Below, piece by piece: positions 7,236 through 47,283 of a stretch of DNA of 64,000 bases (the first letter of the stretch is position 1; the number at the start of each line of letters is the position of its first letter). A program made the translations under genes and the position numbers. This DNA comes from Alphaproteobacteria bacterium (GTDB taxonomy: Bacteria; Pseudomonadota; Alphaproteobacteria; JABAAW01). Where the stretch lies: NCBI GenBank assembly GCA_965216625.1, contig OZ244186.1:1612315-1676314 (forward strand), written 5' to 3'. The notes beneath the pieces are model-generated. The model saw nothing but the letters and a program-made list of their open reading frames with translations. It ran no database searches and had not been told where the DNA came from.

Positions 7236-8378
7236 TTGTTGCCCGAAGGTTTCTACGACCTGCTCGAAGGTCAGGTCGAACGCGAGCAATCCTTAGAGCA
7301 AACCCTCTTGTCGTTGCTCGAGGGTTTCGGCTATCAACGCATCGCGCCCTCGTTGGTCGAATACGAGGATTCGTTGCTCGCGCACGGCGTGCGACAAGCG
7401 CAAGGCGAGCACTGCTTTCGCGTCGTCGATCAGGCGACGCAACGCATGATGGCGATTCGCTGCGACATGACGATGCAGGCGGCGCGACTGGCAGCAACAC
7501 GATTGCGTAGCGAGGTGCGTCCTTTGCGCCTGTCCTATGCGGGCATCAGCCTTCGTACGCGTGCGAGTAATGCTAAGCCGCATCGTCAGTTCTCGCAATT
7601 GGGCTGCGAGCAGTTCGGAGCAGAATCGCCCAAAGCCTACGCCGAGATTCTCACGCTTGCCGCCGCAGCCTTGACCCGCTGCGGCGTCTTGCAACCCCTC
7701 ATCGAGTTAGCTGCGCCTACGGTCGTGCGGCAGATCTGCGAGGCGCACGGCTTGGACGAAGAGCAGCGCGCGCTGCTGACGACAAGCTTTGCCGAGCGCA
7801 ACAAAGAATCGTTGAACAAGCTTGCTTGCCAAGAATTGGCACAAGCTTGTTGTCAGCTGCTCGCGCTCAGAGGCGAGGCGCACGCGACGTTACGCGCCTT
7901 GAGGCAGCTGAGCGAGCAACAAGCCTACCTTGCGCCGCTGTCTGGGCAGTGGCTTTTGTTGGAACAGACTCTCGCTGCTGCCGACTTGCCCTCCTCGCTT
8001 ACCCTTACGCTCGACCCCGTCGAGACGAGAGGGTTTTCCTACCACGACTCCTTCGCCTTCACGCTGCTATGCCACGGCGCGCGCGGCGCGTTGGGACGCG
8101 GCGGCGCGTATCGCTCAAAGTGGGACGCCGAGCCTGCCTGCGGTTGCTCCTTCTACCTCGATGCGCTCGCCTGTATGATCGCCTTTCCGCCTGCCCGTCC
8201 GCGAATTTACGCCGCGCACGACGCGACGCGCGATGCCGTGCGACGACAGCGAACGAAAGGAGTCGTCGTTATCCAAGCCCTGTGCGAGCAATCGCCCGCA
8301 GACACCTTGCGCGCTGCAAAGGACAACCGATGCTCGCAAGTGTTGCGCGGCGACGATACCTTGCAAGAATTGTCGTGA
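7236..8378 (+). CDS. hisZ: ATP phosphoribosyltransferase regulatory subunit HisZ
   Basis: [38 protein letters not shown]; precedes purA as is typical. Confidence 0.9.
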
Positions 8379-10919: not shown

Positions 10920-11522
10920 GTGGATATGTCTTCTATGCAAAATCAACCCCCCAAAGTCGCCATCGTCATGGGTAGTCGCTCAGACTATCCCACAATGAAG
11001 GAAGCCGTCGACATCCTGACACAATTCTCCGTGCCGCACGAAGAGCTCATCCTCTCCGCACACCGCACGCCCGAACGCCTGCGCGACTACGCGCACAACG
11101 CCGAGAAACGCGGCATCCAAACCATCATCGCCGGCGCAGGCGGAGCAGCGCATCTGCCCGGTATGCTCGCCGCCGAAACACCCCTGCCCGTCCTCGGCGT
11201 GCCAATCAAAAGCAACGCCCTGGACGGACTCGACGCGCTGCTCTCCATCGCCCAAATGCCGCGCGGCATACCCGTCGCAACCCTCTCTATCGGAGGAGCC
11301 GCCAACGCCGCCCTCTTCGCCATCGCCGTCTTGGCAGCTGGCGACGCAGAACTCAAACAACGCCTAGTAGAATTCCGAGAAGAACAAACCCAAAACGTAC
11401 CTTGGAAACCCTTCGACCCAAAAGATACAATCAACGGCTCCAAACCAAAAAGTTGGAAGGACAGTAGCAATGACGCAATGCCCAAAGGCACAGAAAATAC
11501 CCGCATTCCTGCGCACGCTTAA
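10920..11522 (+). CDS. purE: N5-CAIR mutase PurE
   Basis: IVMGSRSD, SAHRTP, AGAGGAAHLPG; start may be a few codons downstream. Confidence 0.96.
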   Translation: MDMSSMQNQPPKVAIVMGSRSDYPTMKEAVDILTQFSVPHEELILSAHRTPERLRDYAHNAEKRGIQTIIAGAGGAAHLPGMLAAETPLPVLGVPIKSNALDGLDALLSIAQMPRGIPVATLSIGGAANAALFAIAVLAAGDAELKQRLVEFREEQTQNVPWKPFDPKDTINGSKPKSWKDSSNDAMPKGTENTRIPAHA

Positions 11523-11553
11523 AAACTTTTCAGAACGCTAGTCGACGGCGAAA

Positions 11554-12648
11554 ATGACGACACTCGTTGGCATCGTCGGAGGCGGACAGCTCGCACGCTT
11601 GACCGCGCAAGCCGCAACCCGACTAGGACTGAAGACCGCCGTCTTCGCACCCGAACCCCTCGCGCCCGCTTTCGATACGGCGCAAACAATCTTTCGCGCC
11701 GAATACGACGACACTGCCATGCTCCAACGATTCGCCAAACGTTGCGATGTCGTCACTTGCGAGTTCGAAAATGTTCCCGTCAAAGCCCTCACCACTATCG
11801 AGGCACACGCAAAGCTCTGCCCCTCGGCTGCCGTCTTTGCTTGCGCGCAAGACCGCATTTTGGAAAAATCCTTTTTCGCCAAATGCTCTGTTCCCAGCGT
11901 GGCATGGCAAGCTGTCTCCAACCTCGCTGAGCTGACACGCGCGGTCGAAAAAATCTCGCTGCCCGTCCTGTTGAAACGCGCACGCGGCGGCTACGACGGC
12001 AAAGGACAAATCGAGATCGTCGAACAACGGCAACTCGCAGAAGCTTGGCAGAAAATAGCGATAGGCAAAAACGACACGCGCGCCATCGTCGAGCAAAAAG
12101 CAGACTTAGCATCCGAGTTTTCGCTGATCGCAGCCCGCAACATCGGTGGCGAGTGCGTCCTTTTTCCCGCAACCGAGAATCGTCACGAAGACGGCATTTT
12201 GCACGAAAGCCGCGTTCCCGCAACGCTGGAAGCAACAACCCTGGCACGCGCGCAAGCTTGGACGCGCACCCTAGCGGAGCGATTGGGGGTTGTGGGATTG
12301 CTTGCGGTCGAGTTTTTCCTGACGCGCGAGGGCGAGGTTTTGGCAAACGAAATGGCGCCGCGACCACATAATTCGGGACACTGGACGCTGGACGCAGCCC
12401 CCGTAAGCCAGTTCGAGCAGCTGCTACGCGCCATTCTGAACTGGCCATTGGGACACACTTCTAGCTTTTTACCCGCGCGCATGGTGAATCTGCTTGGCGA
12501 TTCGTGGCGAGACTACCACCGCTTTCTTGCCGACCCCGACGCTGCGCTGCATCTCTATGCAAAGCGCGAGACGCGCAAAGGGCGAAAGATGGGGCATGTG
12601 ACCTTTCGCTCGCTTGCGCACAAAAACTCAAACGCGGCAGAGACCTAA
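11554..12648 (+). CDS. purK: N5-CAIR synthetase PurK
   Basis: GGGQLAR, GYDGKGQ, NEMAPRPHNSGH, RKMGHV. Confidence 0.96.
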   Translation: MTTLVGIVGGGQLARLTAQAATRLGLKTAVFAPEPLAPAFDTAQTIFRAEYDDTAMLQRFAKRCDVVTCEFENVPVKALTTIEAHAKLCPSAAVFACAQDRILEKSFFAKCSVPSVAWQAVSNLAELTRAVEKISLPVLLKRARGGYDGKGQIEIVEQRQLAEAWQKIAIGKNDTRAIVEQKADLASEFSLIAARNIGGECVLFPATENRHEDGILHESRVPATLEATTLARAQAWTRTLAERLGVVGLLAVEFFLTREGEVLANEMAPRPHNSGHWTLDAAPVSQFEQLLRAILNWPLGHTSSFLPARMVNLLGDSWRDYHRFLADPDAALHLYAKRETRKGRKMGHVTFRSLAHKNSNAAET

Positions 12649-12671
12649 TAGGGTCACAATGAGAATCACCG

Positions 12672-13490
12672 ATGAGAATCGCTAAGCGCATCGCCGATAG
12701 CGGTGTCGCCTCGAGACGCGAAGCCGAGGCGATGATTTTAAGCGGGCGCGTAAGCGTCGATGGCAAGCCGCTCGGCTCGCCTGCGTACAATGTTGAGGAA
12801 GGGGCTGTGATCACGCTGGACGGAGACCCTCTGCCGCGTTCCAAGCCGCTCCAACTCTACCTATTCTACAAACCGCGCGAGGTTTTGACGGCACGCATCG
12901 ACGAGCGAGGGCAAAGCATCCATCCGACTTACTCGGACGCCTATCCGCAAACCCACTCGTACACCCACACGCGCACCTGCTTGCCCGATCTGCTGCCTCG
13001 CTCGCTTGCGCGTCTGAAGCCTGTAGGAAGGCTCGACTTTTTGTCCGAGGGGCTGCTGCTACTCACGACCTCGGGCAAGCTCGCGCGACATTTTGAGCTG
13101 CCGCAGAACGCGTGGCAACGACGCTATCGCTTGCGCTTGCACGGAATTCAAGAGGGGCAGACGGGCGAGCAGTCACTTTTGCGATTCGAAAATCTCAAAC
13201 GCGGTATCGAGATCGAGGGCGTGCGTTACCGCGCTGTCTCGGTCGTTGTCCAAAAGCCTCAACAGAAACGCGCCACCGAGCGAGCGAACTTTTGGGTAGA
13301 GGCGACCTTGAGCGAGGGCAAAAACCGCGAGCTCAGAAAAATCATGCGAGAGCTCGGATACAATGTTTCGCGCCTGATCAGAACGCACTACGGACCTTTC
13401 GCCTTGGAGGGATTGGCGCAAGGCGCGCATAAGCGTGTTGAGGAAAAAGAGTTGCGCGCGCTGTTGGGGCAGAAGTGGCAGGCTTTCTAG
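12672..13490 (+). CDS. rluB: rRNA pseudouridine synthase (RluB/RsuA family, S4 domain)
   Basis: RIAKRIADSGVASRREAE, VGRLDFLSEGLLLLT, EGKNRELR. Confidence 0.85.
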   Translation: MRIAKRIADSGVASRREAEAMILSGRVSVDGKPLGSPAYNVEEGAVITLDGDPLPRSKPLQLYLFYKPREVLTARIDERGQSIHPTYSDAYPQTHSYTHTRTCLPDLLPRSLARLKPVGRLDFLSEGLLLLTTSGKLARHFELPQNAWQRRYRLRLHGIQEGQTGEQSLLRFENLKRGIEIEGVRYRAVSVVVQKPQQKRATERANFWVEATLSEGKNRELRKIMRELGYNVSRLIRTHYGPFALEGLAQGAHKRVEEKELRALLGQKWQAF

Positions 13491-14203
13491 AGTTGCTACA
13501 CGTGCGACACAAACAACGAGCCTCCGCACTTCGAGCGATCCGCCAAGCCCCGCGCTTGTTGGGAGGCGTGCGACGCGGCTTCGTTTTGCAAACAAGCGCA
13601 AAAGATGGAAAGAGAGAGGGAGAAGGAAAAGAAATGCGTCCGACGGCGGTGCGAGCGCGCAAGGCATTGTTTGACGCGCTGACGCATCGTGCTTCTTTGC
13701 GTGTGAATTTCACGGCAGAAGAGAAATCTTGCGGAGAGAATTCTTGTTGGCTTTTGGATGCTTTTGCCGGGAGCGGTGCTTTGGGGTTGGAGGCGCTCAG
13801 CCGATGGCAAGGATATAACAAAGAACATAACGAAGGGGATAACGAAGGATGCGGTATTTTTTTCGAGGGCGATGCTGTCATGGCGCGAGTGTTGCGTGGC
13901 AATATCGAGCGCAGTGGTTTGGGGGGTCGTGTTGTTTGTCGTGATGCGATGGCAGCTGGCGAAGCAAGGGAACGGGGAGCGATTCGACTAGCTTTCTTTG
14001 ATCCTCCTTACGCGATGTCCGATGAGGAGGCTGCGCGCGCTCCTGCGGCATTTGCGAAGGGGGGATGGTTTAGCGGGGGTGCGCTTGTTGTTTTTCAGCG
14101 TGCGGCGGGGGGGGAGGAGTTGTTGTTGGGGGAGGAGTTTGTTTTGCTGGGCGATTTGCTGGCGTCTTCTGCGCGCTTTTTCTTCTTTCGTTACAAGGGC
14201 TAG
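13475..14203 (+). CDS. rsmD: 16S rRNA m2G966 methyltransferase RsmD
   Basis: MRPTAVRARKALFD, LDAFAGSGALGLEALSR, FFDPPY; start uncertain. Confidence 0.85.
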   Translation: MAGFLELLHVRHKQRASALRAIRQAPRLLGGVRRGFVLQTSAKDGKREGEGKEMRPTAVRARKALFDALTHRASLRVNFTAEEKSCGENSCWLLDAFAGSGALGLEALSRWQGYNKEHNEGDNEGCGIFFEGDAVMARVLRGNIERSGLGGRVVCRDAMAAGEARERGAIRLAFFDPPYAMSDEEAARAPAAFAKGGWFSGGALVVFQRAAGGEELLLGEEFVLLGDLLASSARFFFFRYKG

Positions 14204-14204
14204 A

Positions 14205-14420
14205 GAGTGCGCTAGCGCACGACAAGTCGTGCGCTCCGCTGACGCGGGGTCTTTTGCGGGGGAACTTCGTCCCCCCACACCCCCCATGCGCAAAACTCAC
14301 TTCGCCTTACGGCTCGCTCGTCTTGCGTTTTTCCTTCGTTATAAAAAGCCCGTCACGCGTTCGCACGCGCGCGCATGTTTACGCCCGTAAAGTCTACAAC
14401 GCGCGTCCATGATGTTTGCT
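14205..14420 (+). repeat. Hairpin-rich modular intergenic repeat, copy A
   Basis: Core CCGCTGACGCGGGGTCTTTTGCG at 14236-14258 shared with copies at ~19.8, 23.9, 57.0 and 58.3 kb; downstream part nearly matches the reverse complement of 19740-19833. Confidence 0.85.
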
Positions 14421-14993
14421 ACGCGCGCGCGCATACTCCGCAAGCACGCGCGGATAAAGCCGATGCTCCAACACAAGCACCCGCTCCGCCAAACTCTCAG
14501 GCGAATCGCTTTCGCTAATATCTAACCGCTCCTGCCCCAAAACCTCGCCCCCATCCAACTCCTCCGTCACAACATGAACGCTACACCCATGCTCCCGATA
14601 CCCCCCCTCAAGCGCACGGCGATGCGTCGAAAGCCCACGCAACCTCGGCAATAACGAAGGATGAATGTTGAGAATACAACCCCGCCAACGCGCCACAAAC
14701 CCCCCTGAAAGCAATCGCATAAACCCCGCCAAGCAGACGATCTCTACATCACGCTCCCCCAACATACGATCAACCACCTGCTCGAATTGCTCTTTCCCCA
14801 GCGCGTCGTAGTCGACAACCTCGCTGGGAATGCCTGCCTTTTTGGCGATCTCGCAACCCCCCGCCACACAGTCAGCAATAACCAACACGATAGAGCAAGG
14901 AAACTTCGGCTTTTGAGCCGCCCGTATCAAAGCCCCAAGGTTCGATCCCCGCCCCGAAATCAACACGGCAACGCGACACTTCAAGGCTGACAA
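14394..14993 (-). CDS. purN: Phosphoribosylglycinamide formyltransferase
   Basis: LISGRGSNL, CLAGFMRLL, ILNIHPSLLP, GCSVHVV. Confidence 0.96.
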   Translation of the reverse strand: MSALKCRVAVLISGRGSNLGALIRAAQKPKFPCSIVLVIADCVAGGCEIAKKAGIPSEVVDYDALGKEQFEQVVDRMLGERDVEIVCLAGFMRLLSGGFVARWRGCILNIHPSLLPRLRGLSTHRRALEGGYREHGCSVHVVTEELDGGEVLGQERLDISESDSPESLAERVLVLEHRLYPRVLAEYARARSKHHGRAL

Positions 14994-27473: not shown

Positions 27474-28253
27474 CTACTTTTTGACAAATAGCATGCCTGT
27501 GTCGCGCATAAATTCGCGTTGCATGCTTGAGCGTTCTTTCATCCTCTCGGTGTTTTTTTTGTCGAGCACAAAGCCGTATTTTTTAAAAACGCTGATCCAG
27601 TAATCTTGCTCGCGGCAGTTGACATGGTGAAAGCCCTCCCATCCCGGCGGTGCGGAAGTGCATGCGACACGATTCGCATGCTGCAAAATATCCATGTAGA
27701 AGGGTTGATACTTTTCCTCGACATGCTCAAGAAACTCGACGCACCACGCGAGATCGAAACGGCGTTTGCAAGGAAATACACCCGTCGTAAAATCGTGCAA
27801 GAAGTAGTGAGACTTCTTACGCTTAAGCGTGTAATCGCCGTCGATTCCGAAAGCTTCGATGCCGAGCTTTCGGGCAAGTTCAACTTGTCCTCCAGGTCCG
27901 CAACCCACATCGATCATGGAGGCAACGGCGAATTGTTCTTTCAGAAACACCAACGCCCCTTCGTCGAGAATCGTCTTTCCGAAGTGCCCTCCCAAATGGA
28001 CGGGAAGATGTCCTTTGGCGATAGATGCGTGGTGTTTGCAAATTTCTCTGTACAAGAAGTTGTTGAAGAGAAAAACACCCCTCCGAAGGGGACGAAGCAA
28101 GCGTTGCCAAAATCCTTTCTCTTGAAAAGATTTTTCGATAAGCGGCTTTTTACCCCAAACCCAAAGGAGTTCGAACCATCTTGCATGATTCAACAGCACT
28201 CGATTGTGAAGGAAACGCAAAAACGTAATATATGCGTTTAACATCCTATCCAA
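27474..28253 (-). CDS. Class I SAM-dependent methyltransferase
   Basis: MIDVGCGPG, FDLAWCVEFLEHV, HHVNC; visibly more AT-rich than its neighbours; start uncertain. Confidence 0.85.
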   Translation of the reverse strand: MDRMLNAYITFLRFLHNRVLLNHARWFELLWVWGKKPLIEKSFQEKGFWQRLLRPLRRGVFLFNNFLYREICKHHASIAKGHLPVHLGGHFGKTILDEGALVFLKEQFAVASMIDVGCGPGGQVELARKLGIEAFGIDGDYTLKRKKSHYFLHDFTTGVFPCKRRFDLAWCVEFLEHVEEKYQPFYMDILQHANRVACTSAPPGWEGFHHVNCREQDYWISVFKKYGFVLDKKNTERMKERSSMQREFMRDTGMLFVKK

Positions 28254-33677: not shown

Positions 33678-35354
33678 TCACGGGCGACAAGCGGACAAGA
33701 ACAAATTCAAATGTCGGCGTTCGGCTGTCGGCGGACATTCTCTCAAGGCGGGAAGGTTCATCCCCGTCAACCCGCTGTTGTAGTAATCAAAGTAACCCGT
33801 TGCATGCCATCCACCCTCCTTTTCCATCTCTCCTGCAGTGCGTTTCAGCATGACAGACTCTAGTCCGGGAACGAGGAATCTGATCAAAGCGATCGCAAAC
33901 AAACAGCCTACGATGCTCCTTGCCATCAGCAAGGGTGCGCGCGGCAAGGATTCGCTCAAAGATTTGCCCAAAGATCTACTATTGTCGGGACCCTCGAAAA
34001 GAAACGCGAGCAGCAAAAGAGGCAGCCACCAATTCTGCGGCGTGAGACGGAATTCAAAACTCGCGCTCGTCGACAAAATCGATGCCATCACGCCTGCCAA
34101 AACGATCCACGCTCCTCGCTGTCGCACAAAGAACGCTAGGGTCAGACACAAAAGCAACGCTCCACTAAAAAAGGAAGAAAATCCGTACTGAAACGACCGC
34201 GCACTCAGAGATGAAAAAGGCGGCAAGGGAGCAGGATCCCAGCCGTTTTTTCCATTTTTGGAAAACAACGAAATCCACCACTTTTCGTAAGACGACTTGT
34301 TGTAGAATTCTGGCTCCATCCACTGAGCGAGCGTGTCGATTCTTATCCCTTGCTCGTCGAATTGGACGGCGGGGTAAAAAGGGTTTTTATCCTGCGCAAC
34401 ATTCGTTGCGTAAGGGAAGAATCCGAACAGAGCCACCCCCAAGACTGCTGCCGCGCTCCCCAGCCCCGCCAATCGTAAGAGCGTCTTTCGACTTGCGGCT
34501 CGCCTTGCGCCATAGGCAAGAGCCGTCAGCCCCAAGACTCCGCCAAAGACGATCCCTGTGAACTTGATGTTGACGAGCAACACGAGTAGAGCCGCAATCC
34601 CAAATGCTGTGCGTCGCATGCGCCGCTTGTCGTCTTGGCGAGAGCCTCCGTCGCAGGCAAAACAGAGCATGAGCATAAATAGGCTCAGCAGCGTGGAGGC
34701 GAGCAAGCCATCGGTAAGGTGGTTGAAGAAACCCAAGGTAGCAATAGGGTTGGCGGCAAGCGCTACTGCGAGAAGGTTGCGCCAAACACGAGACTTGGCA
34801 CAAGACAAGTGCGATAGGGTTGGCGTTGCCAAGAAACGCCTTACACAAAGGAACGCCGCGAATGTGGCAACAAGCGTGAAGGCAAAACTCGCCTCGAATG
34901 TTTGCGTCCATACAATCAGCGAGGAAGAAAGCAGCCAGTGCGCCGCGGGGTAAGCGAGGGTTGTCCAGTCAGCGGGTTGCCAGTAGGGATTGATGCCCTT
35001 CAGCAATCCCAAGATTGCCTCGGCATGGTAAAGACGCGAGTCGTGTCCCCTATCCAAGGTGAAACTCAAAGCCCAGGCCGCGAGCGCGAAGATTACCAAG
35101 AACAACAACAGGGTTGCCAGCAACCTGTGCCATCGTTCTTCTCGATGCAGTGCCACGACCGCTATACCCCACAGCGACAACCCGGCAGGAAAAACCCAAC
35201 GACCTAATCCTATGTCAGAAAGCAAGGCAAACGCCGCCGTCATGTACAAGACAGGCAGAAACAATACCGATGCCGAAAGCAACAGCTCCTCAGAAAAGAA
35301 GCTCCGCACTTTTCTGACCTGTTCGGCTTTAAGTTTCAGTATTAGGGTTTGCAT
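33678..35354 (-). CDS. Polytopic membrane protein, putative GT-C glycosyltransferase (paralog 3)
   Basis: About 12 TM segments; loop LDRGHDSRLYH; DGLL and NIKFTG motifs; paralog of the next two ORFs. Confidence 0.6.
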   Translation of the reverse strand: MQTLILKLKAEQVRKVRSFFSEELLLSASVLFLPVLYMTAAFALLSDIGLGRWVFPAGLSLWGIAVVALHREERWHRLLATLLLFLVIFALAAWALSFTLDRGHDSRLYHAEAILGLLKGINPYWQPADWTTLAYPAAHWLLSSSLIVWTQTFEASFAFTLVATFAAFLCVRRFLATPTLSHLSCAKSRVWRNLLAVALAANPIATLGFFNHLTDGLLASTLLSLFMLMLCFACDGGSRQDDKRRMRRTAFGIAALLVLLVNIKFTGIVFGGVLGLTALAYGARRAASRKTLLRLAGLGSAAAVLGVALFGFFPYATNVAQDKNPFYPAVQFDEQGIRIDTLAQWMEPEFYNKSSYEKWWISLFSKNGKNGWDPAPLPPFSSLSARSFQYGFSSFFSGALLLCLTLAFFVRQRGAWIVLAGVMASILSTSASFEFRLTPQNWWLPLLLLAFLFEGPDNSRSLGKSLSESLPRAPLLMARSIVGCLFAIALIRFLVPGLESVMLKRTAGEMEKEGGWHATGYFDYYNSGLTGMNLPALRECPPTAERRHLNLFLSACRP

Positions 35355-37024
35355 AGCACCAACCCATAAGCGAGTCTGCGTTGCTCCGCTTGATCAGAAC
35401 AGTCCTCTCGCAAGGGCAAGCGCACGTTGGTCAAATCGCTCTTGTAATAGTCGAGAAAGGTTTTCTTGTCCCAGTCTGGGATGCTCTTATCAGGAACAAC
35501 AAACCACCCTCCTTGTCGTTCCGCCTGCCGCACGGTCTGCAACAGCGAGACGGCTCGCTCTCCATAGCCGCCGAAAGAAAGAACGGAGGTGTAAAGCAAG
35601 CAGGCAGTAACGACGAATATCACCGATCGTTGCGCGCGCGACAAAGGATGTTGCCTCTCGTCGGGCGCGAGCAGGAAGACGAGGAAGAGTATCGGTAGCC
35701 ACCAACTCTGCGGCGTGAGACGAGGAGAGACGCTAGCTTCCGTCAACAGAATCGATGCCATCACGCCTGCCAAGACGACCCCCGCTCCTCGGTGTCGCAC
35801 GAAAAATGCCAAGCTCAGACACAAAAGCAGCGAGCCGCTAAACAATGAGCCAAATCCGTACAGGAAGGACAAAGGATACAAAGAAGAAAACGGCGGCAAA
35901 GGAGCAGGAGTCCAAAAAGTTTCTCCTTGTTTCGAAAACAGCGAAACCCACCATTGTTCGTAAGACGACTTTCCCAACAGAATCGGATTTTTCGTCTCAA
36001 GGAACCATGGTTGTCTCTGCTGGCTAACCTTTTCGCCGAACACGATCGCGGGATACATCGGATGGACGGGGTTGGCGTGCTGGCGAACATTCGTCATATA
36101 TGGGTAAAATCCGAACAGCGCGACCCCCAAGATCGCAGTAGCGCTCCCCAACCCCGCCAATCGCAAGAGCGTCTTTCGAGCAGCCCCACACCTGCCACCG
36201 TAGGCAAGAGCCGTCAGCCCCAAGACCCCGCCAAAGACGAGCCCCGTGAACTTGATATTCACAAGCAGCACAAGCAGAGCCGCAATACAAAAGGCTGTGC
36301 GTCGCATGCGCCGCTTGTCGGCTTGGCGAGAGCCTCCGTCGCATACAAAGCAGAGCATCAGCATAAAAACACTCAATAGCGTGGAGGCAAGCAAGCCATC
36401 GACGTGGTGGTTGAAAAAACAAAATGCTGCAACGGGGTTGGCAGCCAACAGGAAAGCGAAAAGGTTGCGCCAAACACGAGGCAATGTCGGCAGCGTTGTC
36501 AAGAAACGCCTTGCGCAAAGAAACGCCGCAAAGACAGCTTCAAGCGTGAAGGCAAAACTCGCCTCGAATGTTTGTGTCCATAAAATAAACGAAGAAGAAA
36601 GAAGCCAGTGCGCCGCGGGGTAGGTGTAGGTTGTCCAGTCGGCGGAATCCCAATACGGATTAACCCCCTTCAGCAAAGCCAAAACGGCTTGTGCGTGATA
36701 GGCGCGCGAATCGTATTTCCAGTCTAGGACGAACCTTGTCAGAAACGCCGCGAGCGCGAAGATTGCCAAGAACAACAACAGGGTTATCGCCAGCTTCTGC
36801 CATTTTTCCTCTCGATGCAGTGCCACGACCGCTATCCCCCACAGCGACAACCCGACAAGAAAAACCCAACGACCTAAGCCTATGTCGGAAAGCAAGGCAA
36901 ACGCCGCCGTCATGTACAAGACTGGCAGAAACAACACCGATGCCGAAAGCAACAGCTCTTCCGAGAAAAGATTCCGTATTCTTATGACCTGCTCGGCTTT
37001 AAGTTTTTTTTCTAGGGTTTGCAT
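35342..37024 (-). CDS. Polytopic membrane protein, putative GT-C glycosyltransferase (paralog 2)
   Basis: LDWKYDSRAYH loop, DGLL, NIKFTG; 13-nt overlaps with both neighbours. Confidence 0.6.
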   Translation of the reverse strand: MQTLEKKLKAEQVIRIRNLFSEELLLSASVLFLPVLYMTAAFALLSDIGLGRWVFLVGLSLWGIAVVALHREEKWQKLAITLLLFLAIFALAAFLTRFVLDWKYDSRAYHAQAVLALLKGVNPYWDSADWTTYTYPAAHWLLSSSFILWTQTFEASFAFTLEAVFAAFLCARRFLTTLPTLPRVWRNLFAFLLAANPVAAFCFFNHHVDGLLASTLLSVFMLMLCFVCDGGSRQADKRRMRRTAFCIAALLVLLVNIKFTGLVFGGVLGLTALAYGGRCGAARKTLLRLAGLGSATAILGVALFGFYPYMTNVRQHANPVHPMYPAIVFGEKVSQQRQPWFLETKNPILLGKSSYEQWWVSLFSKQGETFWTPAPLPPFSSLYPLSFLYGFGSLFSGSLLLCLSLAFFVRHRGAGVVLAGVMASILLTEASVSPRLTPQSWWLPILFLVFLLAPDERQHPLSRAQRSVIFVVTACLLYTSVLSFGGYGERAVSLLQTVRQAERQGGWFVVPDKSIPDWDKKTFLDYYKSDLTNVRLPLREDCSDQAEQRRLAYGLVLCKP

Positions 37025-38724
37025 AACATGAGCCCATAGACGGGTTTGCGTGTCTCTGCTCCTTCAGGACATTCGGGCATCGTGGGCAAGTGCACGCCGC
37101 TCAAACCGCTGTCGTAGTAGTTGAAAAAGGCTTGTCTTTGCCCATCATCTTCGATTACCAGATCAGGCGTTACAAACCACCCTCCCTGCTGTTCCGCTTG
37201 TCGCACAATCCTTAACGAATAAACAGCGTGCCTGGAATGGCTATTAAGCCTTGCGATGGAGATATGAAGCAAGCAGGCGACAACGAAAAACACGATAGCT
37301 CTTTGCGCACGCGACAAAGGAGGTTGCTTCTCGTCAGGCGCGAGCAGGAAGACGAGAAAGAGCATAGGTAGCCACCAGTTCTGCGGCGTGAGGCGAAAAT
37401 CGAAGCTCACAAGCGTCGAGAGAATGGATGCCATGATACCTGCCAAAACGACCCAGGCTCCTTTGTGTCGTACAAAAAACACCAAGCTCATACACAAAAG
37501 CAAGGTACCACTAAACATTGAACCGAACCCTTGCAGAAAAGAGTGGGAACTCAGAGAAGAAAACGGCGGCAAAGGAATCGGGTCTGTCCAAGTTTTTCCT
37601 GTTTTCGAAAACAGCGCAATCCACCATTTCTCGTAATGCGACTTGGAGTATAATTTTTCGTCCCAAAAATTTTCGTACATCTCCTTTGTTCTCTCTAGAT
37701 GGAAGGGATTTTTATGCTGCGCCATGTTAGTGGCGTAAGGAAAAAAGCCGAACAAGGCGACCCCCAAGATCGTAGCAGCGCTCCCCAACCCCGCCAGTTG
37801 GAAGAGTGTCTTTCGCCTTGCGCCGCGTCTGAGCCCGTAAGCCAGCGCTGTCAGCCCCAAGACCCCGCCGAAGACGAGCCCCGTGAACTTGATGTTGATG
37901 AGCAACACGAGAAGACACACGATATAAACGGCGACTCGAAGCCTTGTCGTTCGACTTTGCCTCTTGCCTTCCGAGACAAAACAAAGCATGAGCAAGAAAA
38001 CGATCAACAACGTCGAGACAAGCAAGCCGTCGTTGTAGTGGGAGACGAAGCACCATATTGCGATGGGGTTGGCAGCAAGCAGAAATGCCAAAACATTGCG
38101 CCAAACTCGAGACAAGTGCGTGAGGGCTGGCGTTGTCAAAAAACGCCTTGCGCATAGAAACGCTGCAAAGGCGGCAACAACCGTCAAGACAAAGCTCGCC
38201 TCGAATGTTTGCGTCCATACAATCAGCGAGGAAGAAAGCAACCAGTGCGCCGCGGGGTAGGCGAAGGTTGTCCAGTCGGCGGGATCCCAGTAGGGATTGA
38301 TTCCCTCCAACAAGCCCAAAATTGCCCCCGCATGGTAGACGCGAGAATCGTATCCCCCGTCCAAGGTGAATCTTGTCAGAAACACCGCGAGCGCGAAAGC
38401 TACCAAGAGCAGCAACAGGGTTGCAACCAGCCTTTGCCATCGTTCTTCTCGATGCAGTGCCACGACCGCTATCCCCCACAGCGACAACCCGACAAGAAAA
38501 ACCCAACGACCTAAGCCTATGTCGGAAAGCAATGCAAATGCCGCCGTCATGTACAAGACTGGCAGAAACAACACCGATGCCGAAAGCAACAGCTCTTCCG
38601 AGAAAAATCGCTCGCCACAAGACGACACGCTCTCTTCCCACGCCTTGACGCGTCGTTGTAAAGACGACGAAAGGCGCGTCGCGGCAAGAGCAAGTTCAAC
38701 GGCTGTTGGCAAAAAATGTTTCAT
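37012..38724 (-). CDS. Polytopic membrane protein, putative GT-C glycosyltransferase (paralog 1)
   Basis: LDGGYDSRVYH loop, YNDGLL, NIKFTG; divergent from tRNA-Ser. Confidence 0.6.
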   Translation of the reverse strand: MKHFLPTAVELALAATRLSSSLQRRVKAWEESVSSCGERFFSEELLLSASVLFLPVLYMTAAFALLSDIGLGRWVFLVGLSLWGIAVVALHREERWQRLVATLLLLLVAFALAVFLTRFTLDGGYDSRVYHAGAILGLLEGINPYWDPADWTTFAYPAAHWLLSSSLIVWTQTFEASFVLTVVAAFAAFLCARRFLTTPALTHLSRVWRNVLAFLLAANPIAIWCFVSHYNDGLLVSTLLIVFLLMLCFVSEGKRQSRTTRLRVAVYIVCLLVLLINIKFTGLVFGGVLGLTALAYGLRRGARRKTLFQLAGLGSAATILGVALFGFFPYATNMAQHKNPFHLERTKEMYENFWDEKLYSKSHYEKWWIALFSKTGKTWTDPIPLPPFSSLSSHSFLQGFGSMFSGTLLLCMSLVFFVRHKGAWVVLAGIMASILSTLVSFDFRLTPQNWWLPMLFLVFLLAPDEKQPPLSRAQRAIVFFVVACLLHISIARLNSHSRHAVYSLRIVRQAEQQGGWFVTPDLVIEDDGQRQAFFNYYDSGLSGVHLPTMPECPEGAETRKPVYGLMLCKP

Positions 38725-38770
38725 CGCTCGTCTATGCTAGGATGGCGTGAGGCTGAGAGGAAGGGCTTGC

Positions 38771-38857
38771 GGAGAGGTGCCGGAGCGGTCGAACGGGACG
38801 GTCTCGAAAACCGTTGTGCGCGCAAGCGCACCGAGGGTTCGAATCCCTCCCTCTCCG
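38771..38857 (+). tRNA. tRNA-Ser (CGA); CCA not encoded
   Basis: GGAGAGG/CCTCTCC acceptor stem, ACGGT-CTCGAAA-ACCGT anticodon arm, long variable arm, GGTTCGAATCC. Confidence 0.95.
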
Positions 38858-38905
38858 TATTTTGCTCGAAGTATTTCCTTTGTCGCCGCAACCCTAGCAC
38901 AAGCA

Positions 38906-39688
38906 TCAAAGAGGCAAACGTTTGAAAATTTTCTCTGGGATGTTGCGGATGATCGCCATGATGGCGACCCACAGCCACGGCACATAGAGCTGCTCGCGCT
39001 TGGAGTCGATGGCGCGCAGGATAACACGAGCGACATGCTCAGGACTGCTCCACAAAGCACCCTTGCGGAACGAGGCGGTCATCTTCGTAGACACAAAGCC
39101 GGGCTTGAGCGTCTGAATGCACAGAGGCGAGCCTGCGCGCGCCAAACGATGGCGCAATCCCTGCAAAAAGAGCGCGACCGCGCCTTTCCCCGACCCATAG
39201 ACATAGTTCGACGCGCGACCGCGATCGCCCGCGACCGAACCAAAAACAGAGATCACACCCCCCTTCTTCTCCATGCGTGCGCTCGCGGCATGAGCCAGCG
39301 AGACAACGCTGAGAAAGTTCGTCTCCCAGGCGATGCGCGCCTGTTCAAAGTTTTTCTCGGCTGTTTTTTGGTTCGGCAAAACTCCTTGCGCAAGCACGAC
39401 AACCCGCAACCCTCCCAAGGCTTTGTGCGCGTGGGCGAGCAACTTGTCGTGCGAGGCGAAGTTGCGCGCCTCGAAGCCTTCGGTCGCGACAAAACTGGCA
39501 CCGCGCAGCGTCAAGTCCTTCGCAAGCCTTGCAAGCGCCTTCTTGTCGCGCGAAAAAAGGCAGAGGCGCGCGCCGCGCACAGCCCACAGGCGCGCCATCG
39601 CGCGTGCTATGTCGGCGTTCGCTCCGAAGATTGCTATGTGATCGGAGGTTTGGTGGTCGGGGTTGTGTTCAGGGTTTTTTGCTGTCAT
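38906..39688 (-). CDS. SDR oxidoreductase, DprE2-like
   Basis: IFGANADIA, SVAGDRGRASNYVYGSGK, KPGFVSTKMT; downstream of DprE1-like gene. Confidence 0.8.
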   Translation of the reverse strand: MTAKNPEHNPDHQTSDHIAIFGANADIARAMARLWAVRGARLCLFSRDKKALARLAKDLTLRGASFVATEGFEARNFASHDKLLAHAHKALGGLRVVVLAQGVLPNQKTAEKNFEQARIAWETNFLSVVSLAHAASARMEKKGGVISVFGSVAGDRGRASNYVYGSGKGAVALFLQGLRHRLARAGSPLCIQTLKPGFVSTKMTASFRKGALWSSPEHVARVILRAIDSKREQLYVPWLWVAIMAIIRNIPEKIFKRLPL

Positions 39689-39755
39689 CGTTTTGCTCCT
39701 TTTATGCTTGAGGGGAAATTTATCCCTGAGTTGTCTCGTTTGGATTGTCTTTCTG

Positions 39756-41072
39756 TCAAAGCCCGAGTCGCTTTGATTGCCGCGAAGCAAAAAGGGTGTC
39801 GGCTTCGAACTTGCGCCGTACAGCGCAAAACTCTTTCCATCGAGGATAGCCTTTGCGAAAGTTCTTTTTCGAGAGACGTGCGTCTTTCGTCAGATAGACG
39901 CGTCCTCCGACAGCATGCACGAGCGCGTCCAAATTTTCCAGCAGCGCGAAGACAAGCGCGTTGTTTTGAAAGTCGAGCGCAAGCGTGTAGCCCTCCTGAG
40001 GAAAGGACAGAGGAGACAGAGCGATCCCGCACCCCATCGTTTTCAGCACGGCGAGAAAGGACCCTTGTTGCGAAGCGACGACGCGTTGCAAAATTTCTTC
40101 TAGCACGTCGCGCCCGTCTTTTTTTGGCACGACGCACTGGTATTGCAAAAATCCGCGCTTGCCGTAGAGACGGTTCCAGTGTCGAATGCCATCGAGCGGA
40201 TAGAAGAACTTGTCGTATGCAACGATTCGCTCGACGGGCTTTTTGGCGCGACACCCGTAGTACACGGCGTTGAAGGCGCGCACGGAGAGGGGGTTGAGCA
40301 GGAAGGAAGGAGCGTTGCAGGGAACAGAGACGCGTCCTTTTTCTTCGATGCGCCATCCCGCGCGCTCGGCGTGTTCGGCGAGGAAGAGTACACCGCGCCC
40401 CAGATTTTTGCCTCGTGCAAGACAATCGAGCCACGCAACCGAGTAAGTTGTCTCGGCATAGCGTTCCAACAAATCGACGAGTTCCTGAAGATTGCGCGCG
40501 CGCTGGCTTGTCTCCAGCATGCATGCGCTCGGCACGCGCTTCATGCGTAAGGTTAGCTCGATCACAACCCCGACAAGTCCCATCCCGCCGCAGACGGCGT
40601 GAAACAGCTCGGCATTCTTGCGCTTTGAGCAGGAGACGATCGTGCCATCCGCGAGCATCACGCGCATGTCTTGTATGTGATGAGCAAAGCTTCCTTCTTT
40701 GTGATGGTTTTTGCCGTGCACATCGCTGGCGACAGCCCCTCCCAGCGTCACATGCCTTGTGCCAGGCGAGACAGGCACCGCCCACCCTACAGGCAGGAAG
40801 ACGCGCAATAGATCGTCGAGCGCAACGCCCGCCAGACATCGAAGGTATCCTGTGCGCGCGTCGAAGGCGCTGAGCGTGTCGAAGGCGCGCATGTCGAGGC
40901 TGACGGGCGCGAGCGCACAATCGCCGTAGCCGCGTCCGCAACCCCGTGCGATCAAACGCTCGCCGCGTGCGCGCGCAGAGCGAAAAACCTTTCGCAAGGC
41001 TTCCTCCGATGCAGGCGAGACGACCTGTGCCTCCAGCGAAGGATATCGCCCCCAGCCTGTTATGCTCGTCAT
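39756..41072 (-). CDS. FAD-linked oxidoreductase, DprE1-like
   Basis: GWGR, RGCGRGYGD, PGTRHVTLGGAVASDVHGKNHH, FFYPLD, WNRLYG, FLQYQ, GRVYLTKD. Confidence 0.85.
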   Translation of the reverse strand: MTSITGWGRYPSLEAQVVSPASEEALRKVFRSARARGERLIARGCGRGYGDCALAPVSLDMRAFDTLSAFDARTGYLRCLAGVALDDLLRVFLPVGWAVPVSPGTRHVTLGGAVASDVHGKNHHKEGSFAHHIQDMRVMLADGTIVSCSKRKNAELFHAVCGGMGLVGVVIELTLRMKRVPSACMLETSQRARNLQELVDLLERYAETTYSVAWLDCLARGKNLGRGVLFLAEHAERAGWRIEEKGRVSVPCNAPSFLLNPLSVRAFNAVYYGCRAKKPVERIVAYDKFFYPLDGIRHWNRLYGKRGFLQYQCVVPKKDGRDVLEEILQRVVASQQGSFLAVLKTMGCGIALSPLSFPQEGYTLALDFQNNALVFALLENLDALVHAVGGRVYLTKDARLSKKNFRKGYPRWKEFCAVRRKFEADTLFASRQSKRLGL

Positions 41073-41219
41073 AACTTCCTCACCCCTCTTAAACAATCTT
41101 GCTCGAACAATCTTGTTTCCCAATTTTTGCGCTCGTGCGTTGTCGCGCAAGGATTTTGCGCTTACTATAGGCAAAAGACAGAGGCAAAGGAGCTGTTCGT
41201 GCAGGAGGGAGGAAACGCG

Positions 41220-42143
41220 ATGCCAACAACTTTAAAACCACAGCAAGACAAAAAAACGCGAGCCTTGCAGTCGCGCCCCTTGTCGCTCTCTGTGCTTTCG
41301 CTGTTGCGTCCTTTGGAATGGAGCAAAGGTGTCTTCGTGCTCTTTCCTGCCTTGTTTTACGATGTCTCGCTCGTTGTGCGGGAGCCTGCATTGTGGGGAG
41401 CGGTGCTTGCGAGCTTTGTCCTTTTTTGCCTTGTTGCCTCCAGCGTCTATGTTTTCAACGACCTGTTGGACATCGAACAAGATCGCAAGCATCCGATCAA
41501 GCGACGCTCACGACCTCTCGCTTCAGGGGAGGTCTCCAAACCTTGGGCGTGGGGCATTTTTGTCGTGCTGTCGTCTGCCTGCTTTCTGTTGGCGGTAGCA
41601 TTTGTGCCTGCGGTGTTTCCCTTCCTGTCGATCTATTGGCTTTTGATGCTTGCATACAGCGCGGAGCTGAAGCATTGGGCGATCATCGATCTTTTTGTGA
41701 TCGCGTTCGGCTTCTGCCTTCGCGTCGAGGCGGGTGCGGCGGCGCTCGACTATCCCGCTTCGCTGTGGATGCTGGCTACGACCCTGTGCCTGTCGTTGTT
41801 CCTTGCCGCTTCCAAGCGCAGGCAAGAGACGCTCGCCAACAAGGCGCGCGCGCGGCGTGTGTTGAGCGTCTATTCCGTTTCTTTGATCGAGCGTTACATG
41901 ATGGTGGCGGCGGTTTGCACGCTGATGTTTTACAGCTTTTTTGCAACCGACATTCGTCCAGAGCTAGGTTATACGATTCCCCTCGTGCTGTTCGGCTTCT
42001 TCCGCTACTTGCTGCTGATCGAGCGCGGCTCTGACAAAGATTCTCCTAATGATTCTCCTACCGATCTGTTGTTTTCGGACAAACCTCTTTTGGCGTGCGT
42101 TGTCGTATGGGCGATGTTGTCGATGGTGTTGTTGTGGCACTAG
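41220..42143 (+). CDS. UbiA-family polyprenyl-phosphate phosphoribosyltransferase (Rv3806c/NoeC-like)
   Basis: LRPLEWSKGVFV, YVFNDLLDIEQDRKHPIKRRSRPLASG, KRRQE, SPTD; strong RBS GGAGGAGG. Confidence 0.85.
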   Translation: MPTTLKPQQDKKTRALQSRPLSLSVLSLLRPLEWSKGVFVLFPALFYDVSLVVREPALWGAVLASFVLFCLVASSVYVFNDLLDIEQDRKHPIKRRSRPLASGEVSKPWAWGIFVVLSSACFLLAVAFVPAVFPFLSIYWLLMLAYSAELKHWAIIDLFVIAFGFCLRVEAGAAALDYPASLWMLATTLCLSLFLAASKRRQETLANKARARRVLSVYSVSLIERYMMVAAVCTLMFYSFFATDIRPELGYTIPLVLFGFFRYLLLIERGSDKDSPNDSPTDLLFSDKPLLACVVVWAMLSMVLLWH

Positions 42144-45503: not shown

Positions 45504-46376
45504 GTGACCATATCTGCAAACCCCGAGCAAGATAGAGCGAAGGAAGAACCTCCTGATTTCTCTCCCTATTCTACTTCGATCTTCGAGGTGTCCCTCGCTG
45601 CGAGCGAGGAGGATATCGCTGCGGCGCAGGACTTGCGCTATCGCGTCTTCTACGAGGAAATGTCCGCCGAACCCACGGCGGAAGCGGCGCGCTGTCGTCG
45701 CGAGGTGGATCCCTACGACACCCAAGCCGAGCACCTGCTTATCCGCGAGCGCGAACACGGCACGCTGATCGCCTGCTATCGCCTGATGCGCCGCGCGCGC
45801 TTGCCGAGCAACACGCCCTTCTACAGCGAAAGCGAGTTCGATCTTTCGCGCCTACTGTCGCATCCCTTAGCGTCCGATTCGCTGGAGCTTTCGCGCGCCT
45901 GCGTAGCCAAGAGCTTCCGCACGATGCGCGTCCCTGCGTTGCTTCTCATAGCGATGGGCTACTATGTCAAATATCACAACATTCGTATGCTTTTCGGTTG
46001 CGGATCGTTTCCTGGCATCGACCCCGATGCCTTGGCGATGCCTCTGTCGTGGATGTGGCACCACCACCTTGCCCCTGAGCCCTTGCGCGGCAAGGCGTTG
46101 GAGCATCTGTTTGAGCCAATGAACCGCGTCCCCAAAGACGACCTGATCGCAAAGAAAGCGTTGCACATCATGCCGCCGCTCATCAAGGGCTACCTGCGTA
46201 TGGGATGCTTCGTCGGCGACGGTGCCGTCATCGACCATCGCTTCAAGACAACCGACATCCTGCTGGTCTTGCCGATCAGCGACGACTTGATCGATCGCCG
46301 CTACTACCGCCGTTATTTTTTAAAGGACGCCGCGCGCAACGCCACTGCTCGCAACGCAAAACCTGCGCAAACCTGA
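45504..46376 (+). CDS. olsB: Ornithine N-acyltransferase (GNAT), OlsB
   Basis: AQDLRYRVFYEEM, LELSRACV, LFGCGSF, PPLIKGYLRMG, FKTTD. Confidence 0.85.
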   Translation: MTISANPEQDRAKEEPPDFSPYSTSIFEVSLAASEEDIAAAQDLRYRVFYEEMSAEPTAEAARCRREVDPYDTQAEHLLIREREHGTLIACYRLMRRARLPSNTPFYSESEFDLSRLLSHPLASDSLELSRACVAKSFRTMRVPALLLIAMGYYVKYHNIRMLFGCGSFPGIDPDALAMPLSWMWHHHLAPEPLRGKALEHLFEPMNRVPKDDLIAKKALHIMPPLIKGYLRMGCFVGDGAVIDHRFKTTDILLVLPISDDLIDRRYYRRYFLKDAARNATARNAKPAQT

Positions 46377-46401
46377 CCCCTCCAAGAGGACAGGAGACCT
46401 C

Positions 46402-47283
46402 GTGTTCTGCGAAGCCGATCGGCAAACTCTGTCCTCTCTGTACAGAAACGCACGTTTTCGCATCTCTTGGGGGAGAATTGTCATCAAATTGACCTGCGTC
46501 GTGCTGCTACTTGTCGCAAACACGATCGTTTTCCTGCCCTTTGCTCTGTTACGCCGCCTGCCGCCGAGAGCCTTGCGATCACTCTTTTATAAAATTTATA
46601 CGCGCATTTTAGGCATCTCGCTACGCACGCACGGCGCGGCGGCGGATGCATCGCATGTGCTTTATGTTTCTAATCACATTTCTTACATCGACATCGCGGC
46701 TCTGATGTCCTTGACGGGCGCGCGTTTCGTCTCGCGCGGCGACATAGCGAGCCTTCCCTTCTTCGGGTGGTTGATGAAATGTTACGGCACTGTGTTCATC
46801 CATCGCAGCCGCGTCGATGTTCGAGGACAAATTTCTCTGCTGCAGCGTCTTTTGGACGAGGGCAGCCCTCTGCTGTTGTTCGGAGAAGGCACGACCAGCG
46901 ACGGCAGAGGTGTCCTCCCTGTCAAGTCCAGCCTTTTTGCCGCCTTCGAATCACTCCACGCGAATAACCTCGCCATACAGCCCATCAGCCTACGCTACAG
47001 CCTGCTGGACGGACTGCCCTTGAGCACCCAATGGGAACCCCTGTGCGCATGGCACGGCGAAATGTCCTTCTTGCCACACTTGCGAGAAGCCTTGAGCCTG
47101 CATAGAATTACGATCGATGTCTATGTCCATCCTTCCACGCCCATAGCGAAAATCCAACCCGCGCGAAAAGACATCGGAAGAAAAGATATGGCGCGTTTCT
47201 GCCAAGAGGAAATTCAGAAAGGATGCGCGCTGCTACGCTACTTTGGGCAGGAAGATACCTCCCCCTCGCCTCCCAAAAAATGA
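46402..47283 (+). CDS. Lysolipid acyltransferase (OlsA/PlsC family)
   Basis: SNHISYID, FGEGTTSDG, KSSLF; follows olsB. Confidence 0.85.
   Translation: MFCEADRQTLSSLYRNARFRISWGRIVIKLTCVVLLLVANTIVFLPFALLRRLPPRALRSLFYKIYTRILGISLRTHGAAADASHVLYVSNHISYIDIAALMSLTGARFVSRGDIASLPFFGWLMKCYGTVFIHRSRVDVRGQISLLQRLLDEGSPLLLFGEGTTSDGRGVLPVKSSLFAAFESLHANNLAIQPISLRYSLLDGLPLSTQWEPLCAWHGEMSFLPHLREALSLHRITIDVYVHPSTPIAKIQPARKDIGRKDMARFCQEEIQKGCALLRYFGQEDTSPSPPKK

Follow-up and report, generated by a model that had tools for sequence, protein, structure and literature searches.

The window analysed here is the whole 64,000-nucleotide stretch of an Alphaproteobacteria bacterium genome (assembly GCA_965216625.1, contig OZ244186.1, positions 1,612,315 to 1,676,314 of the forward strand). 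The system in question is a tandem array of three paralogous membrane proteins, c1 to c3, which lies beside homologs of the enzymes that make lipid-linked arabinose in mycobacteria. The genome (G000) is 1.9 Mb in size and 90.7% complete. The locus carries the following features.

33678 to 35354, minus strand: paralog c1 (P0001), predicted GT-C glycosyltransferase fold, 558 amino acids, end of the array
35342 to 37024, minus strand: paralog c2 (P0002), predicted GT-C fold, 560 amino acids
37012 to 38724, minus strand: paralog c3 (P0003), predicted GT-C fold, 570 amino acids, the copy used for the structure model
38770 to 38858, plus strand: tRNA-Ser(CGA)
38906 to 39688, minus strand: DprE2-like short-chain dehydrogenase/reductase (SDR), by homology, 260 amino acids, YxxxK at residue 164
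38917 to 41112, no strand assigned: dprE1 and nearly the whole of dprE2, 2,196 bp, absent from a relative's contig
39756 to 41072, minus strand: DprE1-like flavin adenine dinucleotide (FAD) oxidase, by homology, 438 amino acids
41220 to 42143, plus strand: UbiA-type polyprenyl-phosphate phosphoribosyltransferase (PPPRS), by homology and motifs, 307 amino acids

A check of the open reading frames (ORFs) confirmed what a preliminary description of this DNA had reported: the gene set and its coordinates, three paralogs of about 560 residues that each carry the motif D-x3-D-S-R-x-Y-H, and tRNA-Ser(CGA) as the sole feature between the array and the donor-synthesis genes. Consecutive c1–c3 ORFs overlap by 13 bp, and their products share 62.7–64.8% identity (tblastn) and are the only three matches to their family across the whole genome. 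The c1 stop codon is followed, after 20 bp, by the start of a coxB-like ORF. The UbiA-type gene does adjoin the DprE genes, as described, but it lies on the plus strand, divergent from dprE1 and overlapping a ribB-like ORF. PPPRS is encoded on the other strand from dprE1-dprE2, and the tRNA runs against the direction that leads from dprE to the array, so the six genes form a cluster rather than a single operon. A promoter scan of the locus returned 3 candidates, with 3.0 expected by chance. The labels coxB and ribB, like hflKC and olsB elsewhere, are presumptive, some of them resting on Pfam matches.

The three donor enzymes resemble those of the mycobacterial decaprenylphosphoryl-arabinose pathway (Rv3806c, Rv3807c, DprE1, DprE2, Rv3789), in which they find their best solved-structure matches: PPPRS matches the DPPR synthase 8j8j (E 1.5e-26), the FAD oxidase matches DprE1 (E 4e-74), and the SDR matches DprE2 (E 8e-22). 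NCBIfam likewise ranks the mycobacterial DPPRS, DprE1 and DprE2 families first or second for these proteins. PPPRS carries NDxxDxxxD at position 80 and KRxxE at 199, has no fused haloacid dehalogenase (HAD) domain, and is 31% identical to its E. coli O99 ortholog. The DprE1-like protein has Ala at the site of a Cys in mycobacterial DprE1, which we take to be C387, the benzothiazinone target. In one sample, contigs from two runs lack 764 bp of the PPPRS gene (41360–42125), with 30 bases on the short side and at low depth, a weak hint of a donor-less variant.

To place c1–c3 in a wider family, we combined sequence and structure comparisons. A word-based search returned 67 relatives, nearly all close, while a profile search reached 2,580 clusters at E 0.001 and 1,173 at 1e-30. 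The family alignment holds 142 sequences, 13 from the word-based search and 129 full-length ones among 150 profile matches listed. D126, P220, D232, K279 and R444 (c3 numbering) are invariant over all 142, and D122 is kept in at least 90%. The structure model of c3 (pLDDT 94, pTM 0.93) shows about 13 membrane helices, with 11 hydrophobic segments by hydropathy, and additional N-terminal helices precede a GT-C core. The first 25 rows listed by Foldseek for this model (ranks 1–26) are all GT-C enzymes. With VIA-align the top match is ArnT (Z 17.2, root-mean-square deviation 5.6–6.0 over 370–378 residues, 12–14% identity), followed by AglB (Z 16.0), ALG12, Pmt4 and AftD (Z 15.5), with many GT-C families at Z 13–16; AftA, AftB and Emb are also among the fold matches. 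From the model helices and the positive-inside rule, all invariant polar residues are predicted to face the periplasm. The polytopic membrane core, the structural matches and a conserved Asp in what is predicted to be the first extracytoplasmic core loop support the fold proposed in the preliminary description: c1–c3 are predicted to adopt a GT-C fold and, by extension, would transfer sugar from a lipid phosphate.

The predicted active site recalls that of ArnT, in which, as far as the accessible text of PMC7801869 shows, D158, K203 and a conserved Arg have counterparts in the Asp after the first core helix of our family, the second loop Asp, the Lys and the late-loop Arg. Unlike members of the ArnT/PMT clan, c3 has the additional N-terminal helices, its identity to ArnT is low, and 0/58 close members of the family match PF13231 (PMT_2) or PF02366 at E 0.01; membership was rejected. 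The family had been called uncharacterised, and this holds: no Pfam or NCBIfam family scores above its cut-off for c1–c3, weak Pfam matches are confined to DUF2142 (16/58 members), TgpA_N (10/58) and LIC_10190 (2/16), and 27 of 30 Atlas look-alike clusters have no common family. Look-alikes with PMT on 26% or PMT_2 on 53% of their members serve as leads only. The family profile matched no sequence in the PDB, no members were found in viral contigs or phage records, and 400 genomes of the phylum yielded only two weak partial matches, with GT2 neighbours, which were excluded from the counts. Domain fusions occur in P0145 (acyltransferase-3), P0095 (DUF7024) and P0261 (ABC ATPase-like); a search for long fusions found two proteins, neither fused to a synthase, which is weak evidence. 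No description of the family or the array was found in the literature, where coverage of subscription papers was slim. The family has no assigned name, and the array with its optional epimerase is also new; the general pathway has already been described.

The closest prior art, absent from the preliminary description, is the set of three-component pentofuranose systems of Kelly et al. 2024 (PMC11127046). In the parts of that paper accessible to us, the Citrobacter youngae O1/O2 system comprises ORF15 (PRP-PPPRS), ORF14 (flippase) and ORF12 (GT136), GT136 accepts more than one pentose, and candidate systems bearing DprE1/E2 or several GT-C proteins are already described. The window shares with these systems a PPPRS with NDxxDxxxD and RxxE, the motifs mutated in Citrobacter ORF15, together with an optional sugar-setting epimerase and a GT-C final step. 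Unlike the Citrobacter system as accessible there, it has GT-C proteins with no detectable sequence relation to GT136 and without a C-terminal DUF7024, a mosaic tandem array, a divergent synthase, no fused phosphatase and no linked flippase. Our GT136 reference was an E. coli ORF12 ortholog, taken from the record to which the alignment in that paper refers, although the figure legend gives a strain name that differs from the record; 35 homologs were gathered and 30 aligned. This alignment conserves D31, E34, Y35, H106, R349 and Y350, matching the catalytic numbering in the accessible text. Membership of our family in GT136 was rejected, since hhalign of the two alignments gave a probability of 0.6% and the family profile reached a best E of 0.28 on 36 GT136 homologs. 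The GT136 profile matches in the family just the C-terminal domain of P0095, DUF7024, a Pfam family that GT136 homologs also carry.

The same donor genes are used in two further Gram-negative systems, Pseudomonas TfpW and Azorhizobium noeCHO (bioRxiv 2020.04.19.049825, PMC2443382, both accessible in part). By its description there, TfpW is set apart as a protein of 646 amino acids with a tetratricopeptide repeat domain encoded behind pilA, neither of which is found at the window.

Gene neighbourhoods link the family to PPPRS. Within the genus, the order PPPRS, tRNA-Ser, array is kept in five of six other genomes, the sixth being 69% complete with a contig that ends there; the family itself is present in all six and in 0/34 other genomes of the order and class. 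Among 79 metagenome loci scored for neighbours within 6 kb (a biased sample: a 16-sequence sub-alignment gave 466 matches, of which the 80 best were taken), PPPRS is found at 20, a flippase of the small multidrug resistance (SMR) type at 18 and DUF212 at 14 (10/33, 10/33 and 8/33 where flanks are long). PPPRS is the commonest donor-enzyme neighbour of the family, with GT2 genes about as common. In a quickly built family tree with a weak backbone (98 rows, reduced to 77 by removal of near-duplicates), members that neighbour PPPRS fall into about ten distinct groups. In the class of an Oscillospiraceae record, 399 scored genomes include 8 with the family, 32 with PPPRS and 5 with both, side by side. 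With the seed genome excluded, PPPRS occurs in 4/7 family-bearing clostridial genomes versus 27/391 others (Fisher P 0.0009, kin not being independent). The co-occurrence with donor genes that had been anticipated is borne out for PPPRS but, across the family, not supported for DprE1/DprE2. One metagenome locus (L048) has the order PPPRS-SMR-DUF212-GT-C, with DUF212 at 7565–7978. DUF212, a divergent PAP2 family found in synthase operons between flippase and GT-C genes, is a candidate polyprenyl-phosphate-ribose-5-phosphate phosphatase.

Together with the family, DprE1/DprE2 were seen only in the window's genus, in Cereibacter and, unlinked, in one Leptospirales genome. A family member is present on three Cereibacter plasmids, and on plasmid CP031752 a run of genes encodes HAD-PPPRS, GtrA, a hypothetical protein, DprE1, DprE2 and, last, the family member (E 5.6e-71). 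The hypothetical protein (L038:5282–6445) has 387 amino acids and no Pfam match. In Cereibacter sphaeroides EBL0706 the family member is AXQ95944. The Leptospirales genome encodes PPPRS, DprE1, DprE2 and a family member (L007:5034–6722) that is 41% identical to c3 and falls in the same tree clade as the window's genus, possibly by transfer between lineages in either direction. At another locus (L066:4163–7805), in a wzx cluster, PPPRS and GtrA genes accompany a GMC oxidoreductase and a gluconate 2-dehydrogenase subunit 3 beside the family member; these two may be an alternative modifier of lipid-linked ribose.

Taken together, we hold it moderately likely that PPPRS, the DprE1/DprE2-like pair and c1–c3 jointly make undecaprenyl-phosphate-arabinofuranose and, on the periplasmic side, attach its sugar to a surface polysaccharide. 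By analogy, the locus is probably a variant of the three-component systems of Kelly et al., decorating such a polysaccharide. The 5-phosphate would be removed by a phosphatase, for which no dedicated gene was found, and DprE1/DprE2, judged by homology, would invert C2 to give arabinofuranose. A flippase, perhaps the unlinked GtrA, might move the donor, and the GT-C proteins, given their predicted fold, would transfer the pentose by means of periplasmic D126, D232, K279 and R444. The sugar would most likely be added as side chains on a polysaccharide exported by Wzm/Wzt.

Several observations weigh against this proposal. All three donor enzymes score under the NCBIfam equivalog cut-offs (183.8 vs 234, 403.6 vs 500 and 158 vs 250 bits), so they are homologs that are not filed as members of the mycobacterial families. 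Also unlike the mycobacterial pathway, no PAP2 phosphatase was found; DUF212 and a fused HAD were likewise unmatched in the genome (90.7% complete). The single weak HAD match resembles phosphoglycolate phosphatases; BacA is also encoded. No flippase is linked to the locus. GtrA has a single match in the genome, located beyond the window, in keeping with the absence of a GtrA-like flippase or dedicated phosphatase from the window noted previously. GtrA is also present in 4/4 relatives of the order that lack PPPRS, which leaves its role as a dedicated flippase unsupported; with a GtrB/PgfS-like gene (C1, about 717.4–718.5 kb; E 3.5e-48) and a separate PMT_2 GT-C protein also encoded in the genome, GtrA may serve a hexose system. 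Across the family, 54/79 metagenome loci (21/33 with long flanks) have neither PPPRS nor SMR nearby, GT2 genes occur at 27/79, nearly all loci of one well-supported clade are linked to GT2, and three clostridial genomes with strong family matches have no PPPRS match, in incomplete assemblies. DprE1/DprE2 adjoin the family at 0/79 loci. Given the many loci without PPPRS or SMR and the GT2-linked clade, a claim that the family uses pentose only is not supported, and arabinose is the exception. Because PPPRS recurs where DprE1/DprE2 do not, the default donor of the family is probably ribose, with arabinose a local add-on.

Comparison within the genus bears on the acceptor. The array has 3 copies in G000 and 5 in a second genome, G004. 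Flanking single-copy genes of this pair have dS of 0.17–0.30, while the closest GT-C pair has dS of 0.54, so there are no full-length one-to-one orthologs between the two. Codons 41–92 of c2 are 99% identical to c3 in DNA, versus 73% overall. Significant runs of identical codons were found in c3/c2 (28 codons, P 0.003) and in two G004 copies (88 codons, P 0.0002), the other 4/6 pairs tested not being significant. Public contigs show joints between paralogs, which at 85% likeness may stem from sister strains. The copies are under purifying selection (mean dN/dS 0.33; 0.39 in periplasmic parts, 0.24 in helices), and no positive selection was shown, mean dN/dS being below 1 in every region. These comparisons indicate that duplication and recombination remodel the array, likely giving different strains different surface patterns. 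Both ends of birth-and-death turnover are represented: one record (L008:671–4065) has a pair of nearly identical copies in tandem, and in G001 one of two copies is broken into two frames (L154:5521–7229).

Because the copies are mosaic and lack one-to-one orthologs between two close genomes, the earlier suggestion of a separate acceptor or linkage for each paralog loses force. For the same reason it appears unlikely, though it is the best surviving alternative, that the same donor pathway serves a different acceptor, namely lipid A or a glycolipid (ArnT-like), a protein (TfpW-like) or a serially built arabinan (Aft/Emb-like): variable copy number without stable orthologs is a poor fit to a fixed assembly line. 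ArnT is indeed the top structural match, the protein-modifying AglB and PMT enzymes lie within 2 Z of it, three copies could give three linkages, and TfpW by itself polymerises and transfers arabinofuranose (bioRxiv 2020.04.19.049825, accessible in part). The top Z values nevertheless fail to single out a function, family relatives are located in wzx, wzm/wzt and GT4 clusters, and a crude motif scan of the genome found no type IV prepilin. Also present in the genome are lpxC, wzm/wzt, GT2 clusters and a Wzy_C/ligase-like gene. Family members fused to DUF7024 or to an acyltransferase domain point toward the polysaccharide acceptor that we favour.

The distribution of dprE1-dprE2 bears instead on the sugar. 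DprE1 is present in three of the six other genus genomes, in two at the tRNA/PPPRS site and in G006 about 7 kb away. The G006 copy is a distinct one, 44% identical to that of G000 and 57% to that of Cereibacter, and lies directly downstream of a methyltransferase gene that uses S-adenosylmethionine and is conserved close to the locus in the genus (27474–28253 in the window). DprE1 was not found in the other three, which are 64–81% complete; in three genus genomes PPPRS starts 138–170 bp from the tRNA with nothing between. Public contigs join 38916 to 41113 in 4/4 runs, which come from 2 samples of 1 study that may be the source of the window, and in X1 the form without dprE1-dprE2 has a depth of 82.5 vs 656.6. 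Such a contig differs from the window at 2/60 bases on the tRNA side and at about 10% on the synthase side; with divergence on both sides it belongs to a co-occurring relative rather than to the same strain, and dprE1-dprE2 may sit elsewhere in that relative. On these comparisons, the epimerase pair behaves as a gained-and-lost cassette.

Its patchy presence, the lack of DprE genes at the metagenome loci, the relative's contig and the want of a dedicated 5-phosphatase in the genome would all suit a reading in which c1–c3 transfer ribose or ribose-5-phosphate, while DprE1/E2 are a recent passenger, inactive or acting for another acceptor. We consider this improbable, as dprE1 and dprE2 are intact, comparison of G000 with G004 shows purifying selection on both (dN 0.03–0.05, dS 0.17–0.23), a second lineage of the genus holds its different DprE1 copy, and GT136, in the accessible text of PMC11127046, is not restricted to one pentose. 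Least probable of all is that the array uses undecaprenyl-phosphate-hexose from the unlinked GtrB-like enzyme, flipped by GtrA, its adjacency to PPPRS being historical: both genes are encoded and one family clade adjoins GT2 genes, but the separate PMT_2 GT-C protein could partner a GtrB/GtrA system, PPPRS has remained the array's neighbour throughout the genus, the two genes pair again in about ten tree groups, and nothing else emerged as an obvious consumer of the pentose donor.

Beyond the arabinofuranose transfer proposed for this locus, we tentatively raise a broader and rather doubtful possibility: the family would be a second large group of periplasmic pentofuranosyltransferases, unrelated to GT136, with DUF212 as its usual phosphatase, in which a recombining array and a DprE1-DprE2 cassette plugged in or out behind tRNA-Ser switch the positions and the sugar (ribose or arabinose) among co-occurring strains, giving two-level surface variation. 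If true, this would explain what some 2,600 membrane-protein clusters without annotation do, add a new GT-C family beside GT136 and nominate DUF212 as a missing phosphatase. Epimerase loss at the level of strains, with shuffling of the array, would be a natural case of the sugar swapping predicted in the accessible text of Kelly et al. Since Cereibacter, a harmless host in culture, carries the whole operon, the claim is directly testable with published farnesyl-phospho-pentose assays. Arabinofuranose coats block phage in Pseudomonas, according to the accessible part of bioRxiv 150227.

A few further genes lie in the surroundings. Near PPPRS, the window encodes at 45504–47283 a GNAT protein and an acyltransferase, a pair that we presume to be ornithine-lipid-like; such a pair also lies near PPPRS at about 17500–18900 in L014 and L015, which are near-identical loci. 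Elsewhere, G000 encodes several Sel1-repeat proteins and two long RTX-repeat proteins (L147:5711–8004; L149:1480–2325 and 11359–14493; L153:3128–6964). It also carries tandem GT2 arrays (L148, L149) at C1:809400–814600 (5 GT2 domains), with phage-tail-like genes upstream, and at C1:757300–758800 (2 domains), so glycosyltransferase genes have expanded in tandem in this genome beyond the c1–c3 array.

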